Positions 989 through 63,425 are shown, counted from the stretch's first letter. The stretch is DNA of 64,000 bases from an uncultured Planctomycetota bacterium (GCA_963845755.1 CAWJTV010000045.1:1-64000), one strand, 5' to 3'. The notes: generated by a model not told the origin, from the letters alone. Translations and numbers: made by a program.

Positions 989-3900
989 ATGTTGTTGAAA
1001 CCGTTTCAGGAGCGGCGCGGCGAGTCTGCGCGCGACCGGCGTTCTCGAGCCCGCCGAAAGCCGGCACCCCAACGGCGCGTTCCGCGCCTTGACGTTCTTG
1101 AGGACCGGACTTTGCTCAGCACGCTGGTCGTCAAGAGCGCCCTTGACGACGGCTCTGCCGGCACCCTGCGCCTGTGCTGGCCGCGGCCAAGAGCGGCGAC
1201 ACCATCCAGTTCGCCCGCGCGCTCGATGGCCAAACCATCACCTTGACTCAGGGCCAGATAGTGGTCAACCAGAACGTGACCATCGCCGGCCCTGGCGCGA
1301 GCGAACTGGCAATCAGTGGCAATGCGGCGAGCCGGCTGTTCGAGATCGCCGGTGGCGCGAAAGTGACGATTTCCGGTCTGACGCTCACGGACGGCGTCGC
1401 CACCGACGGGGCCGGCGCCCTCAATGCGGGGAACCTGACGCTGACCCAGGACGTGCTCGGTGCTGACGTGGCGCAGGGGGTGGCCGGAGGCGGCCTGTTC
1501 GGCGACGGGGCCGGCCGGGGCGGCGGCGTGGAGAACGAGGCGGGGGCGACACTGACTGTCTCGCGAAGCACCTTCACGGGTGATCTGGCTCTCGGGGGCA
1601 CCGGCGGCGGCAATGCGTTCGGCGGCGCCATCGACGACGAAGCCGGCACGGTCACGATTGACCATAGCACGTTCACCGGCGACCAGGCCGTGGCCGCCAA
1701 TGGTGGTGCGGTGAGCGTGGCCGTGACGCTCCCAGGTGGCGTGAGCGCCAGCCTGCTTGGCGTCGCAGGCGGCGGTGGTGTCTGGAACGATGGCGGAGCG
1801 CTGACCGTCACCAACAGCACGCTGACGAACGACCTGGCGCAGGGCGGCAGCGACGGTAACGCCAGCTCCAGCACGGCGGCGCTCGTTGTGGTCGGCACGG
1901 CAATGGGCGGCGCCATCGGCGAGGGCGCCTTCTTTACGGCGGCAACGCCAGGCCTCGTCGTGGGCAACAGCACGTTCACGGGAAACCAATCCCTGGGCGG
2001 CTCCGACCTCCTGTATGCGGCCTCGAATTTCACCTTTCCGCTCCAACCCTTGGTTGATCCCGGCTCCGGCCGAGGCGGCGCGCTAGGGGCCGTCGCGGGC
2101 AACGTCTCCATCGCGCAGAGCACGCTCACCGGCAACACGGCCCAGGGTGGCAGCCTCGCCACCGATGTCGTGCACGGGGTAACGGTCCTCGTACTGGGCT
2201 CGAACGGTTACGGGGGCGGCATCGACGATGAGTTCGATTTCGGCGTTGCGCCGCCTCCCGCGGCCACCGCGCTCGCGATCGCTGGAACGACGATCAAGTC
2301 GAACGCAGCCCTGGGCAGCGGCCCCTCCGGGCCCGGATACGGCGGCGGTGTCGCGAGCGCGCAGGTGAACGCGAGCGTGAGCAACTGCATCGTAGAAGAC
2401 AATCACGCGACGGGGAGTTTCGGCGGCGGCTTCACCGGATCCACGTCAGGGACTTTTGCGTACACCTACGGGGGAGGGTCGGCTGACGGCGGTGGGCTGT
2501 ACTGCACATCCGGCGCGTTGACCATCAGCAACAGCGCCGTGGACGACAATCTCGCGCAAGGCGGTCCGGGCAGTGCCACCCTCGGCGGCGGGGGCGGCGG
2601 CGGGGGCGGCGTCAACTCCTCTGCGCCGCTGGTCCTGTCCAACGTGACCCTGGCCGGGAATCGGGCGGTCGGCGGCACGTCGACGGCTCCGCAGGACAGC
2701 GGTGCAGGCGCCGGCGGTGCAGGTGCAGGCGGGCTCTCCTGCGATTCGGCGACGATCACCAACACCGTTTTCACGGATAACCTCGCTATCGGCGGCGCGG
2801 ATGGCGCCGGCGTGGGTGGCGACGCGGGTTCTGGTGGCGCATCCACCGGAGCGCTGGACATGAGCAACTGCACGTTCACCGGCAACCAGGCTTTGGGGGG
2901 CGCAGGCTTTTTCGGAGGTATCGCGGAGGCCGGCGGATTGGGCGTCGGTTCCAATGGACCCAACGTCGAGGTGAGTAACACCAATTTCATTGGGAACAGC
3001 GCCATCGGCGGCGGCTCGATCATCGCCAACGAGAACAGTGGGGGCGGCAATGAGGGCATTGGGGGCGGCGTATCCGTTGTCCTTTTCACACCGTACTCGG
3101 GCGCGACGGCCACATTCACCAACTGCACTTTCCTGCAGGACGTCGCGGTCGGCGGGGCGGGTGCGGATGGTTCCGATGGTGAAGGTGGCGGCATGTTCGT
3201 GAGCGGCGAGAGTACCATGGCGCTCAGTGATTGCAATTTCACGCAATGCGAGGCCCAGGGCGGAGCCAGCGGTTTCAGCGACCCATTTGACCCATATGGC
3301 GGCTTCGCCAGCGGCGGCGGACTCGACGTCGATTACGTGAGTACCGTCGTCGTGTCGAACACCACGTTCACGCACGACCAGGCCATCGGAGGCGCCGGCG
3401 GTGCGGGCACCAGTGGCAGCCAGGGTGTGGCAGGGGCGTTTGCCCAGGGAGGTGGGATGAATGTTGACGGCGGCTCCAGCGCCACAGTCAATGGCTGCTC
3501 TTTCGTGCATGACGTGGCCTTAGGCGGTGCCGGCGGCGCAGGGGCAGCCGGTGCTGATGGTGGAGCAGGGGGTGCTGGCCAAGGCGGGGGCCTGTCCAAC
3601 ACCACGGATTCCACCACCAGCGTGAGCAATAGCCTCTTCATCTCGAACGTGGCACAAGGCGGCGCCGGCGGTGCTGGAGGAACCGGGGCCACGGGCGGTG
3701 TGGGTGGCGCGGGCCAGGGCGGCGGGCTGTGCCAGGCTGAAAGCTACCTGGCCACCTCGCTGACCGTGACCAACAGTACCATGACTCTGAACCAGGCACA
3801 GGGTGGTGCCGGCGGCGCAGCCGGCGGCACGGGCGGGGCGGGTGAGGGGGGTGGGCTCTTCAACTCGCCTGCGTTTTACAGTGGCCCCCCCACGCTTTCG

Positions 3901-4197
3901 ATCAGCAACTGCGCGATCCTTGCCAACACGGCCGAAGGCGGCGCCGGTGGCACGGGTGGCGATGGCGGAGACGGTCTAGGCGGTGGCATCTTCAACGACC
4001 AGGGAGCCACGGCCACGGTGACGGCGAGCGTCATCAGCGCCAACCTCGCTCTGGGTGGGCTGGCCGGCTCCGGCGGAAGCGCAGGCCAGGGCATCGGGGG
4101 AGGCATCTATAATCTCGGCACGTTTTCCCTCGATACTCTCTCCGTGGTCCTTGGCAACTATGCCTCCACGAGCAACGATAACAAGTTCGGGGTCTAG
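989..4197 (+). CDS. Large Gly/Ala-rich extracellular beta-helix/adhesin-like protein with planctomycete-type leader (frameshift near 1170)
   Basis: GGGAGA RBS before ATG 989; Arg-rich N-terminus with LDVLEDRTLLS; DDGSAGTLR joins AAAKSGDTIQF across a frameshift; repeated FTGNxAxGG...GGG(L/V/I)xN units. Confidence 0.8.
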
Positions 4198-4219: not shown

Positions 4220-4560
4220 ATGAACGACTCCTTCCGCCTGGCCCTGGAGAAACATCAACAGGGTTTCCCGGACCAGGCGGCTCAACTCGACTCTAAGGTG
4301 TTCAGCCGCGAACCTGAGCATGCGGACGCTTTGCACTTGCTGGGCGTGGTGGCACATCAGCAAGGCCGACATTCTCAGGCCATCGGGTTGATCCGCCAGG
4401 CCCTGGCACTCAAGCCGGGCATGGCGATGTATGACGCCAATCTTGCCGAAGCGTACCGCACCCCGGCTGAGTATGAACTGGCCGCTGCGAGCGCTACGAC
4501 CGCGTTGCGGCTACGGCCGGACTTTGCTGAGCCAGCCAACACGCTCGGTCTGCTCTTAGA
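4220..4560 (+). pseudogene. Truncated TPR protein (N-terminal TPRs only)
   Basis: HADALHLLGVVAHQQG and PDFAEPANTLGLLL TPR motifs; similarity is lost at ~4557 (TTAGAGC...) just before the mobile-element nest. Confidence 0.65.
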
Positions 4561-4625
4561 GCAACCTCCAATCGGTCTCGAAAACCGGAGTTGGTGTTGT
4601 GCGCTTCGGTGTGATCGACGATTGG

Positions 4626-5424
4626 GTGCGCCGTGGCTAAGGTTTGTCTGGTCTTGTCGGGAGTGCCCCGACCCCGCTGGAAGAAGGCGGGTAAAACGTT
4701 CCGCTGACCTTCAACCGAAAGGATCGAGGGGACAACAGCATGCGGAAGAAGCGACGTGAGGCCCAGCGTCAAAGGGCCGAGAGACGTTCGCAAGTTAGGC
4801 CACGCATGGGTAAGGCTGGATTGCTTGAACTCCAGTCCCAGTGGGTGTGCTCGATCACCGCCGGGAATGACGCTGAAACCCGGATTCCTGTCTCACGGGG
4901 GCATGCCATTCACCTCCGTGATCTTCCGGCAGGACACACCCTGCAATGAGCAGGGGCAAGGGATGAACGGAGGCCCTCAACGTGGACCGGACCTGACAGA
5001 CAACCACGGGATCGCCTAACGGCAGCAATGCCCAAGGCGACAGAGTCCCCGTAGTAGGCATCGGCCCAAGGGGGACAGGACACAGGGCTTCACCAAGAAA
5101 GGGGTGACTCGGATGAGTCATTCAGCCCTACTCAGGCTTGAAGCACTGCGGAACGAAAGATGGAGGGCAAACCTGTCGGTGGGTTTGCCTGGCTGATGCG
5201 ACTCCAGAACCGGAAGCAAGTGCCCGTCTGCCGAGAGTGCCACCGTAAGATCCACCGAGGAGAATATGATGGCCTCCGACTGGCGGACCTGGCATACCGG
5301 GTTGGACCGTGACACAAATGTAGATCCTGTGTCTGGAGAGCCGGATGCACGAAAACGTGCCTGTCCGGTTCGGGAGGGGGCGGTTGGATTCCCTTGAGAT
5401 CAAGGGGCTGGCCGCCTACCTCAT
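4626..5424 (+). mobile_element. Group IIA (mitochondrial-like lineage) intron with internally deleted intron-encoded protein
   Basis: 5' GTGCG at 4626; DI closing stem CCGTGG 4631-4636/CCACGG 5004-5009; DII hairpin; DIII GTCCCC-GTAGTAG...GGGGAC 5045-5076; DIV stem GACACAGG 5079-5086/CCTGTGTC 5326-5333; 34-nt DV 5338-5371 with AGC triad; DVI with bulged A5418 seven nt from the CAT 3' end. Confidence 0.93.
5113..5312 (+). pseudogene. Remnant of group II intron RT/maturase: N-terminal peptide joined out of frame to C-terminal HNH endonuclease fragment
   Basis: ATG 5113 MSHSALLRLEALR, then frame 5154-5312 RKMEGKPVGGFAWLMRLQNRKQVPVCRECHRKIHRGEYDG..., matching the NRKQxPxCxxCHxxxH motif of ML-class IEP En domains. 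Confidence 0.85.
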
Positions 5425-5640
5425 CACTAGCTTAAGCACAAATCATTAGTTCTAAAAGAGTTGCGCTCGCGGCTGGCGGGTTTTCCGTCGCCAATATCCA
5501 ACTGTGATTATCTTGTTGGTGACGGAAGAGCCGGGAAACATGGGGCTATAGGCGGTGCCCCTGGGATCAGGTCCAAGGAGCCTGTAGGCTCTCTGTTCAC
5601 AAGTCTAAGCCCGATCGGATGTTGCGCTTAAGCTAGTGCC
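5425..5640. mobile_element. Non-autonomous IS4-like element (MITE, ~220 bp) whose left TIR is split by the intron
   Basis: CACTAGCTTAAGCACAA 5425-5441 versus reverse complement of TTGCGCTTAAGCTAGTG 5622-5638 (16/17); removing the intron restores GG|CACTAG to match CTAGTGCC; no ORF inside. Confidence 0.75.
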
Positions 5641-5741
5641 TTTCGTCGGATCGACCGAAGCACCCTCGAAATATGCCTGTGATTCGACGCCACTCTGTGC
5701 GTTTGTCACCTTCGACTCGTGAACGGGTACTAATTTTGTAA

Positions 5742-6300
5742 TTAAATATGTTCTTTTGCATTCATCTGCCAGGTCTCATGGGCTACGGTCGCCCGGTCCA
5801 GGTCAACCCGCGGCGGGCGACCCGCCGGGGCTGGGGACAGATCGGCTCGCACGAACCAACGTTGGAGAGTTCGTTCCGAGAGAACCGACTGTCCCGGGGC
5901 CATCAGGAGCAACTGCACACGGATCGAGCCAGCTCCCCAAGTGGGGTGCTCGCGGCGTAGCTGTACGGCGGTCTGCACCATCTCGGAGGGCGCCGTGAAG
6001 TTGGCCGAGCGGTAGCGGTAGTCTGGCGAGATACCGTCGCGACCGCGGAGCCGAAACCTCTGGAGGAGACGGCGAACCGTGGAGCCCGGCAAGCCCAAGG
6101 ATGCGGCGATCTGGCGGGTCCCGCAGCCCTGTTTCCAGTTCCGGAAGATCATCTGACGGATCGGGACGGGAATGGGACGTGGCATGGTCAAACCTCGAAA
6201 AAGCATAACCATAAGAGCAACCGCCCCATACTGTACCAATGTCGTGACGCGATCAAACCGGGTGTCGGGATTTCGCGATCCAACTTGGTGTCGCGTGACA
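5742..6300 (-). mobile_element. Truncated IS remnant: HTH + start of rve/DDE transposase, with left end TGTCACGCGACA... at 6300
   Basis: MPRPIPVPIRQMIF...TVRRLLQRF...RREHPTWGAG.IR...SERTLQRW...HETWQMNAKE stops prematurely; minus-strand end starts TGT and carries two CGACA-N8-GATCGCG repeats. Confidence 0.7.
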
Positions 6301-61935: not shown

Positions 61936-63425
61936 CAATACCGTTGAAATAGGCGCAAGCCACAGCCTCCTGTTACTTTGGGTTTACTCACGACCCAAGC
62001 AACACGGAGGCCATGACTCGCATGCCGCACGGACATTGCACGCTGCCGCCCGATGCGTCGGGCCGGATCTTGGATCGCTTGGCGGGACTGGAACAGATTA
62101 TCTCGCCCGAGGCCGTTCGCCAAGTCCTCGCGGCCACCGGTAAAACCAATCAACGACGTTGCACACTGACCCACGAGATTGTTTGCTGGGTGGTCCTGGC
62201 CATGGGGCTGTTGACCGACTTGCCGATCCGCCAAGTCTTCAAGCATGCACGCCGGCTCCGAGTCGGCGAGGAGAGTCCCCATCGATCCAGCCTGTGTGTG
62301 GCCCGGCAACGCCTGGGCATCGCGCCGGTCCGCCACCTGTTCGAGCACGTCGTTCATCCTCTGGCCCGGCCCGATACGCCCGGAGCCTTCTACCGCGGGT
62401 TCCGCCTGGTCGGCATCGATGGGACCGTCTACGATGTCCCCGACTCGGAGGCCAACGCCGCGGCCTTCGCGCGCCCCTCGGCCGGGCCGCGCGGCGACGG
62501 CGCGTTCCCCCAAGTCCGCAAGCTGAGCCTGGTCGAATTGGGGACCCACATCGAACTGGCCTTCGTGGTCCGGTCGATCGCCCACGGCGAACCGTCGATG
62601 GTCGGCGGCTTGCTCCGCCATCTGACTCCGGAGATGCTCCTGTTGGAGGATCGCGGGTTTTTCAGCTATGACCACTGGAAAACGGCGATGTTGCGGGGCG
62701 TCCAGCTGTTGGCACGCGTGAAAAGCGGCTTGATCCTCAAGTCGATCCAAAACCTGGCGGATGGCTCGTACCTGGCCAAGATTTATCGGGGTTGCTACGA
62801 CCGTCAGATCGATCGGGATGGGATCGTCGTCCGGGTGATCCGCTATACACTGGACGACCCGCAACGAGTCGGACACGGTGAAACTCATGTGCTGATCACG
62901 AATCTCCTTGACGCGGAGCTTTATCCTGCTGAAGAATTGATTATTCTTTATCACGAGAGATGGGAACAGGAGTTGGTCTATGATGAGCAAAAGACCCATC
63001 ATGATCCGCGGCGGGCGACCAAGCCGGCACAGATGCGAAGCGAGACCCCGGCGGGGGTGATCCAGGAGATCTATGCGCTGTCGCTGGGTCATTTCGTGAT
63101 CCGAGCCTTGATGGTTGCGGCCGCCGGGACCGTGGGGCTGGACCCGGATCGGCTGTCGTTTCTGGGGTGCTTCCAGATCCTCAAGTGCCGGTTGCCAGAA
63201 TGCAACAGCTCGACCCCCGAGGCGTTCGAGGAGTGGTACCAGGGATTGTTGTGGGAGATGCAGGGGGAGCGCACCGATGACGAAATGCGGAGGAACCGGA
63301 TCAATCCGCGAGTGATCAAGCGTAAAATGTCCAAGTGGAAAAAGAAACGATCCAAACATCGACACATTCCGCCCTTGAAGAAAACCTTTGCAGAGACAGT
63401 GGTTATGCTTCCTTAAACGGTATTG
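61936..63425 (+). mobile_element. IS4-family insertion sequence (~1490 bp)
   Basis: TIRs CAATACCGTTGAA / TTAAACGGTATTG; single transposase whose stop codon lies in the right TIR. Confidence 0.93.
62013..63416 (+). CDS. IS4-family DDE transposase
   Basis: ARQRLG, IDGT, EDRGF, LITNL, YHERWEQE (YREK motif), RINPRVIKRK. Confidence 0.95.
   Translation: MTRMPHGHCTLPPDASGRILDRLAGLEQIISPEAVRQVLAATGKTNQRRCTLTHEIVCWVVLAMGLLTDLPIRQVFKHARRLRVGEESPHRSSLCVARQRLGIAPVRHLFEHVVHPLARPDTPGAFYRGFRLVGIDGTVYDVPDSEANAAAFARPSAGPRGDGAFPQVRKLSLVELGTHIELAFVVRSIAHGEPSMVGGLLRHLTPEMLLLEDRGFFSYDHWKTAMLRGVQLLARVKSGLILKSIQNLADGSYLAKIYRGCYDRQIDRDGIVVRVIRYTLDDPQRVGHGETHVLITNLLDAELYPAEELIILYHERWEQELVYDEQKTHHDPRRATKPAQMRSETPAGVIQEIYALSLGHFVIRALMVAAAGTVGLDPDRLSFLGCFQILKCRLPECNSSTPEAFEEWYQGLLWEMQGERTDDEMRRNRINPRVIKRKMSKWKKKRSKHRHIPPLKKTFAETVVMLP

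Follow-up and report, generated by a model that had tools for sequence, protein, structure and literature searches.

A group IIA-like intron at the junction of an IS4-type transposon end and a REP-like palindrome in a soil planctomycete genome

The window analyzed here is a stretch of 64,000 nucleotides from the assembly of a soil planctomycete (14.27 Mb, 49 contigs, 87.9% complete), and it contains a nested group of repeated and mobile sequences at positions 4596-5663, all described on the plus strand. The left arm of a REP-like palindrome (GCTTCG at 4603-4608, with a one-sided TTGNGCG-type tail; 4596-4608 in all) is followed by 11 bp of palindrome core (4609-4619), which form the left copy of a target duplication and include the motif GATCGA at 4613-4618, and then by GATTGG (4620-4625), the six terminal bases of an IS4-type MITE with the family consensus GAATGG. 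These bases are separated by a 799-nt group II intron (4626-5424) from the remainder of the MITE (5425-5644), which comprises the rest of the left inverted repeat (5425-5441, CACTAGCTTAAGCACAA), the body, and the right inverted repeat with its tip (5622-5644, where the counterpart at 5622-5638 is followed by CCTTTC at 5639-5644). The right copy of the target duplication (GTCGGATCGAC, 5645-5655) matches the left copy at 9 of 11 positions, and the right palindrome arm, CGAAGC..., occupies 5656-5663. Two pairs of arms were returned by an inverted-repeat search, an inner pair at 5425-5441/5622-5638 (17 nt, 94%) and an outer pair at 4603-4621/5643-5661 (19 nt, 74%). A preliminary description of this locus had proposed a nest of three layers, namely an intron within an IS4-like element within a palindromic outer layer; this arrangement was borne out, and every coordinate given there was found to be correct when the sequence was re-read. 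Upstream of the element, at 4220, lies an ORF on the same strand, residues 6-114 of which match TPR repeats.

The intron begins with GTGCG and ends with ...CTCAT, and its domains V and VI (5336-5424) gave the sole Rfam match within the 64-kb window (RF00029, 62 bits; gathering score 40). The fold of these domains has an energy of -54 kcal/mol (z -6.4), and a bulged A located 7 nt from the 3' end (A5418) is the presumed branch point. The EBS1 hairpin (4893-4921) is composed of a 9-bp stem (4893-4901/4913-4921) and an 11-nt loop that carries the delta base G4905 and EBS1 (CCATTC, 4906-4911); it folds at -14.1 kcal/mol, and 5 of 200 shuffled sequences fold as well as it does. This hairpin agrees with the stem and loop given in the preliminary description. 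Full-length copies of this intron, 2438 nt long, are present on contigs C34 (two copies) and C7, together with a 5'-truncated copy on C42, and the window intron matches the ends of the 2438-nt copies in two blocks (1-528 and 529-799) at 99-100% identity. The difference is a deletion of 1639 nt (intron positions 529-2167) within the reverse-transcriptase gene. Set against the intact 615-aa ORF of the full-length copies, the gene remnant in the window (5104-5315) retains the first 16 codons, the deletion junction at 5153/5154 and the HNH C-terminus, which is out of frame because 1639 is not a multiple of three. Since the window intron is the only copy in the genome with this deletion, we think that a full-length insertion was shortened in place, and no sign that an ORF-deleted short form has spread was detected among the intron copies of the genome. 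The window copy is thus most likely a derivative that lost 1639 nt of its protein gene where it stands.

The 615-aa ORF of the intact copies contains RVT_1, Intron_maturas2 and AI2M-like HNH domains. Against TIGR04416 its product scored 252 bits, below the curated cut-off of 300. Its best solved relative is LtrA, residues 15-594 of which align with residues 18-596 of the intron protein (326 bits, E 3.5e-96), while proteins of IIB and IIC introns gave at most 113 bits over the RT domain only, in a comparison by pairwise match. The Rfam D1-D4 subclass models gave no family match to the full-length copy at E 0.1 or better, so the subclass is not readable from Rfam. The GTGCG start and domains V/VI identify a group II intron, and the LtrA-like HNH protein and the delta pairing considered below support an assignment to the IIA/mitochondrial-like (LtrA-like) lineage, in agreement with the earlier placement of the element as a group IIA intron. 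We also looked for the spliced or empty joint 4625>5425 in public soil metagenome and metatranscriptome contigs (at most 0.44 of sampled words), and none was seen. Metagenome DNA contigs diverge from the window at 5153/5154, running on into the full-length protein gene, and RNA-library contigs cover the intron domains at 90-99% likeness, which bears on neither transcription nor splicing of the window locus.

We searched this genome for uninterrupted transposon ends using a 22-mer that spans the insertion site (up to 4 mismatches) and found 29, most of which pair as elements of 225-229 bp. Without its intron, the MITE of the window is 226 bp long and non-coding, and it is accompanied by an 11-bp duplication. 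The first 15-16 nt of its tip are common to an autonomous relative on contig C47 (G000:C47:276274-278103; 1830 bp, same tips), which encodes a transposase of 504 aa. This transposase matched the NF033592 'IS4 family' model at 213 bits (cut-off 115) and PF01609 DDE_Tnp_1 at 56 bits (cut-off 23), and it is single-copy in the genome, where the next best sequence is 43% identical. MITE pairs of 225-233 bp were found in this genome and in 11 others, and the MITE remainder in the window shows 95% identity to the MITE at G000:C7:45868-46081, and intact MITEs of C42 and C12 are less close to it (72-74%). Judged by sequence, the host element has the properties of a MITE, being short, non-coding, flanked by a duplication, present in many copies and provided with inverted repeats shared with an autonomous IS.

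For the IS4 subgroup, Table 1 of PMC2266710 gives ends of the form -AATR--------WTW, direct repeats of 10-13 bp and a typical size of 1400-1650 bp. The tips of our element, GAATGGCACTAGCTT(T/A), read AATG at positions 2-5 and TTT or TTA at positions 14-16 and fit this end consensus; the IS size (1830 bp here, 1579-1843 bp in relatives) is above the subgroup range, which is typical and not strict. The IS4-family transposase model, the tips and the duplication of 11-12 bp all agree with the IS4-family host element that had been proposed, and the paired ends, the duplications and the spread over genomes establish that GAATGGCACTAGCTT is the end of an IS/MITE family.

The palindrome in whose center the MITE lies, CTTCGG-core-CCGAAG, is dispersed in the genome, with 87 matches at up to 3 mismatches versus 0 in the reversed control, a result that upholds the palindromic outer layer. 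Among these 87 palindromes, 74 are free of IS tips, and 11 doublets are spaced about 40 nt apart. The free palindromes have the same two arms as those flanking the element in the window, a single copy of the core and no transposon. We then compared the flanks of paired ends. In this genome, five of eight true pairs (excluding a ninth 'pair' that joins two different elements) have a perfect 12-bp direct repeat abutting GAATGG...CCATTC, and the remaining three have no direct repeat, their cores being inverted or mixed. Of 18 elements from the 11 other genomes, 15 are bounded by direct repeats that are perfect and anchored at the tips, 11 bp long in 10 elements and 12 bp in 5; these 15 include six of six full-length ISs, and the other three elements have no such repeat. 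We attribute the elements without a direct repeat to probable recombination between copies. At two loci, L076 and L081, direct repeats are present although the flanking arms are unlike the usual palindrome arms.

The duplications, the empty sites and the published IS4 consensus together make G4620 the first base of the transposon, so that six of its nucleotides precede the intron and the 7th follows it. The tip therefore borders on a palindrome that is outside the transposon, and 'IS end/palindrome junction', as the site had been called, is the right wording. The arms and core might alternatively be the outer part of one MITE terminal inverted repeat of about 45 nt, with the intron in the middle of this repeat and not 6 nt from the tip. 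Such a repeat would account for the conservation of arms, core and tip at nearly every end and for the inverted cores of three of the eight local pairs, but it is at odds with the 74 transposon-free palindromes, with an asymmetric core that forms a perfect direct repeat in most elements elsewhere (those with non-matching arms included), with tips and a direct-repeat length that fit the IS4 subgroup, and with the one-sided tail of the palindrome, which occurs on either side relative to the element. The free palindromes, the direct repeats and the IS4 tip consensus largely refute a single 45-nt inverted repeat, and we regard it as very improbable.

With the transposon tip placed at G4620, the insertion site of the intron, between nucleotides 6 and 7 of the 226-bp MITE, can be compared among copies. 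A BLAST census of the genome identified 13 intron 5' ends, all 13 of which are preceded by a common 5' exon of about 26 nt, consisting of the arm GC(T/G)TCGG, a variable core of 11-12 nt and GAATGG or a one-base variant of it; a 14th 5' junction, belonging to a short fragment at C9:283509, lies at the same site. The 3' exon CA(C/T)(T/G)AGCTT... follows seven of seven intron 3' ends in the genome. The same 5' exon was also found at five of five distinct junctions in the related Gemmataceae genomes G046, G087, G109 and G032, and a complete MITE follows L048, the only related-genome copy with a 3' end. This constancy of the junctions (14/14 at the 5' side and 7/7 at the 3' side in this genome) is far beyond chance and agrees with the earlier proposal of a multicopy, non-coding target at the IS end/palindrome junction. 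A wider junction census across 121 genomes, made with the pattern GAATGG+GTGCGCCGTGGC at 2 mismatches, returned mostly noise; true junctions made up 3 of the 30 loci fetched, and all three were already known. The intron on contig C36 has a 1-nt deletion at its start.

Beyond about position -27, the flanks differ at the 12 junctions outside the pair C9:311655/C42:394854, and the MITE bodies adjacent to the introns, which belong to different subfamilies, are 72-95% alike versus 99-100% for the introns themselves, which indicates separate recent insertions and not copies of one locus. Moreover, the intron on C7 is located at the opposite end of a MITE that is 95% identical to the one in the window, so that either end of the same MITE subfamily is usable. 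These observations also bear on the notion that the shared flanks stem from segmental duplication, or from a co-mobilized intron-plus-MITE unit, in place of repeated site-specific retrohoming. Some copies are indeed duplicates, as the identical flanks of that pair imply, and a left flank is common to the C2 and C47 MITEs, but the divergence of the outer flanks and MITE bodies, the use of both ends and the presence of the same junction in four other genomes lead us to reject segmental duplication as the general cause, its probability being minimal. Repeated retrohoming to one kind of site is the reading that we retain.

How this site might be recognized is suggested by three complementarities. 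EBS1 is complementary to the consensus tip GAATGG at all six bases, and its pairing with IBS1 amounts to 5/6 in the window, as the preliminary description stated, and to 6/6 at most other copies. The delta base G4905 faces C, the 7th base of the transposon. EBS2 (TCGATC, 4851-4856) is the exact complement of GATCGA (IBS2, 4613-4618), and since this partner belongs to the duplicated palindrome core, IBS2 lies outside the transposon. The preliminary description had asked whether homologous introns consistently occupy such ends, and the outcome was split: close relatives (88-100% nucleotide identity; 5 genomes of at least 4 genera) always do, and the distant homologues L058 and L059, from public Gemmataceae/Planctomycetota MAG records (59% identity of the intron-encoded protein), sit in unrelated targets. 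Their pairing elements have changed in step with the exons, EBS1/IBS1 being CAGAA/TTCTG with a G.U delta pair in L058 and CGAAGA/TCTTCG with a U-A delta pair in L059. Unrelated targets accompanied by matching changes of EBS1 and delta are as would be expected for retargeted introns, which makes the split outcome a favorable one, and the covariation supports the EBS1 and delta assignment and the IIA-type delta-delta' rule with the modest statistical weight of three lineages. For EBS2/IBS2, we found only 5-of-6 candidate pairings in L058 and L059 and did not use them as evidence.

Covariation, supported for EBS1 and delta, was mixed for EBS2. The copy on contig C6 (94% identity), the only diverged copy that keeps EBS2, adjoins the other common palindrome core; three substitutions have turned its EBS2 into CCGAC, which is complementary to GTCGG in that core with a register shift of one base. 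In contrast to C6, the decayed copy L048 (G046, 5' end TTGCG) has the standard EBS2 beside a non-matching core, and in L049 the match between EBS2 and core is ambiguous. Covariation of EBS2 is thus suggested by one copy, C6, and is thinner than that of EBS1. We further compared occupied and free ends in this genome, dropping one duplicate and all rows without a recognizable arm before the count, and detected an IBS2 match of at least 5/6 at 8/11 occupied ends versus 4/28 free ends (Fisher test, P = 9e-4, with related copies as rows that are not fully independent). Roughly 2 of the 28 free rows have the look of chance matches; the result is unchanged without them. The three occupied ends with a poor IBS2 carry intron fragments truncated before EBS2. 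Viewed from the side of the sites, 8 of 12 ends with a good site are occupied, and four ends with a perfect site are unoccupied. Since the central bases of the palindrome are asymmetric, a direct duplication leaves just one end with a good IBS2, and at intron-bearing MITEs the unoccupied partner end indeed reads GATCC or GATCA.

A different division of labor would have the intron protein mainly choose the site, either through the double-stranded palindrome arm and the inverted repeat or through a hairpin as class C introns do, with the complementarity between EBS2 and the core being secondary or coincidental. The IBS2 mismatches seen in L048 and at three of the 11 occupied ends would fit this possibility, as would the palindrome arm, which is invariant at all sites, so that its share is inseparable from that of IBS2. 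The enrichment of IBS2-matched ends among occupied sites, however, argues against it, as do the three changed positions of EBS2 in the sole sublineage found in a different core and the HNH domain and LtrA-like architecture, unlike hairpin-using class C introns. We consider site choice mainly by the protein unlikely, while giving it some weight, and favor recognition in which pairing of EBS2 with the core takes part.

We also examined the distribution of the transposon and the intron. Of the 121 genomes of the family, 25 contain the IS end (17-mer, up to 1 mismatch), as do 11 of its 53 genera, and the reversed control gave 0-1 matches per genome; many genomes without a match are incomplete, so that their lack of a match is not equivalent to absence. 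The intron lineage occurs in 5 genomes, all of which are among the 25 with the IS end, and the four in addition to the present one represent at least 3 other genera (88-94% identity). Judged by this nesting of distributions, the transposon family is the older and wider layer and the intron a secondary invader.

Overall, we estimate at roughly 0.85 the probability that the locus consists of three nested mobile or repeated layers with an intron that homes to a composite site. The first layer is the REP-like palindrome dispersed in the genome, and the second an IS4-subgroup IS with its MITE derivatives of about 226-233 bp, which would insert at the palindrome center and duplicate 11-12 bp of the core. 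The third layer is the group IIA intron, which encodes an LtrA-like RT/maturase/HNH protein and would retrohome into the transposon end directly after nucleotide 6. By pairing EBS2 with the palindrome core, EBS1 with the six tip bases and delta with base 7, its RNA would read the composite site, and the protein would presumably make contact with both the inverted repeat and the arm of the palindrome. Under such composite reading, a site exists only where this transposon has inserted into a palindrome whose core is the right one, and with an asymmetric palindrome center usually one of the two ends would qualify. The window copy would splice or move only with protein from the three intact copies. 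Anatomy, constancy of the site, complementarity, covariation and enrichment are what the sequences show, and from them we infer both this supply in trans and a mechanism of reverse splicing/TPRT. As the element follows the TPR-repeat ORF on the same strand, read-through from that ORF could supply the intron RNA.

IS4-family (Tn5/Tn10) elements move by cut and paste, their DDE transposase binding to the repeat and cutting the DNA at the tip. With the intron in place, 0.8 to 4.9 kb lie between the six terminal bases and the remainder of the inverted repeat, and with the tip split off in this way, that transposon end should be disabled. It is therefore plausible that the intron immobilizes the transposon, as the preliminary description had it, and it may limit the spread of the transposon family. 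In a bolder form, to which we give a little less than an even chance, the homing site is carried by no single element and arises only when an IS4-subgroup transposon duplicates a particular REP-like palindrome core; the intron would read the host repeat (EBS2), the tip (EBS1) and the inverted repeat (delta and protein) together, its sublineages would have retuned EBS2 to different cores, and it would be a hyperparasite of the transposon, capping its ends and so disabling them. The locus is a well-resolved natural case of parasites stacked three deep, and four deep in two copies, in which a retroelement gains a constant, harmless and multicopy target through the strict insertion specificity of another element. 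Because the target straddles the boundary between transposon and host, the intron marks one kind of insertion event. Furthermore, two palindrome cores, two ends and two EBS2 variants make a natural test set for how IIA introns recognize their targets.

The natural target of Ll.LtrB, the IIA intron of Lactococcus lactis, is a relaxase gene, whereas the target here is a transposon/palindrome junction. The two systems are otherwise alike in the RT, X and HNH domains of the protein (LtrA; PDB 5g2x) and in the arrangement of EBS1, EBS2 and delta. In habit, the closest parallel is RmInt2, which, in the available text of PMC4615759, homes into both inverted repeats of ISRm17, a behavior that its authors describe as a strategy multiplying harmless targets. 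As that text presents RmInt2, both introns have all copies in the inverted repeats of a multicopy IS, can use either end, and are targeted by EBS/IBS pairing and protein. RmInt2 differs in being a class D intron with a protein lacking HNH, while the intron here is IIA-type with delta-delta' pairing and an LtrA-like HNH protein, and the ISs concerned, ISRm17 and our IS4-type element, are different. According to the same text, the IBS region of RmInt2 from -14 to +1 comes from the inverted repeat itself; here the transposon supplies only IBS1, and the duplicated palindrome of the host supplies IBS2 and the distal 5' exon.

Two further introns use insertion sequences as targets. The accessible parts of PMC5894124 describe RmInt1 as homing into ISRm2011-2 (IS630 family), its insertion being said to 'block' the spread of the IS, and E.c.I4 homes into transposase genes of the IS3 family (PMC5894124, PMC3522654, to the extent accessible). 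As in these accounts, in which the sites become saturated in some strains, the natural homing sites here are multicopy insertion sequences; unlike the transposase genes used by E.c.I4 and the site of RmInt1 within ISRm2011-2, the target here consists of the final 6 bp of a terminal repeat that does not code for protein, and most of the host elements are non-autonomous MITEs. With regard to the outer layers, insertion of IS4-type elements into REPs is reported in the part of PMC1525189 that was available, and, as described there, both cases share a short dispersed palindrome, conserved arms to either side and a duplication of roughly 10-13 bp. The differences from that account are the host, which belongs to another phylum (Planctomycetota, Gemmataceae), and the palindrome, which has only some 74 free copies when up to 3 mismatches are allowed.

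In the literature searched, no description of this palindrome family was found, nor of a composite target that straddles a transposon tip and a duplicated palindrome, most subscription journals lying outside that search, and nothing relevant was found there on planctomycete group II introns. Introns and MITEs are described in Thiomargarita, but not an association of introns with MITE ends, in the available portion of PMC4853749. Homing into the inverted repeats of an IS is not unprecedented, and with RmInt2/ISRm17 in print (PMC4615759, as accessible) the case is less new than the preliminary description implied. What differs here is the class of intron, the transposon family and the composite target; since the general habit has already been published for RmInt2, the gain lies in breadth and detail and not in principle.

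Two further copies of the group II intron in G000, the genome to which the window belongs, carry insertions of their own. In the copy on contig C36 (C36:44686-49641), the protein gene is interrupted by a 2.5-kb element (G000:C36:46510-49020) with TGATTAGCGACAATTAGA-type ends. This element encodes two ORFs, one of 389 aa and the other, a P-loop ORF, of 253 aa, and is putatively IS21-like in our reading. Seven intron bases (1818-1824) are duplicated where it inserted, and nine more copies or fragments (≥99%) are present in the genome. Because this element lies within the protein gene of the intron, the nest of intron, IS4-type transposon end and palindrome gains a fourth layer. The ORF of the copy on contig C11 (C11:964056-968950) is likewise interrupted, by a 2.45-kb element (G000:C11:965049-967500) that shows a 5-bp overlap at intron positions 989-993 and has a 99.96% identical copy on C26. 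It codes for a 697-aa protein, a putative large serine recombinase as judged by eye.

Within the window, a 165-aa ORF (5742-6239, minus strand) contains homeodomain-like HTH domains of a type known from transposase N-termini, with HTH_23 over the cut-off and HTH_32 slightly under it. This ORF appears truncated, and its surroundings look like a mobile-element graveyard. A second, distant IS4-type transposase is encoded at 62232-63224 (plus strand); it shares 26% identity with the 504-aa IS4-family transposase of contig C47 and the genome carries four or more copies of it. For the 1007-aa ORF at 1174-4197 (plus strand), which is glycine-rich and repetitive toward its C-terminal end, a Pfam search returned nothing at E 0.01 or better.

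Relatives of the intron with 90-99% likeness were found in soil metatranscriptome contigs of two public sequencing runs (X15 and X16) aligned to window positions 4300-5900, and their letters differ from those of the window intron at the EBS1 and EBS2 positions. Since the 5' exon in one such contig resembles the palindrome alone, lacking the tip of the transposon, single contigs hint that sister lineages may target the palindrome itself.

The genome contains 74 free copies of this palindrome and 11 doublets. Target palindromes frequently form such doublets genome-wide, in which one core type is joined through an 18-nt spacer to the other, bordered by TTGCGCG / CGCGCAA tails (e.g., G000:C13:29387-29447, C19:407546-407606, and C47:276218-276278). 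In this arrangement, the doublets look REPIN- or BIME-like.
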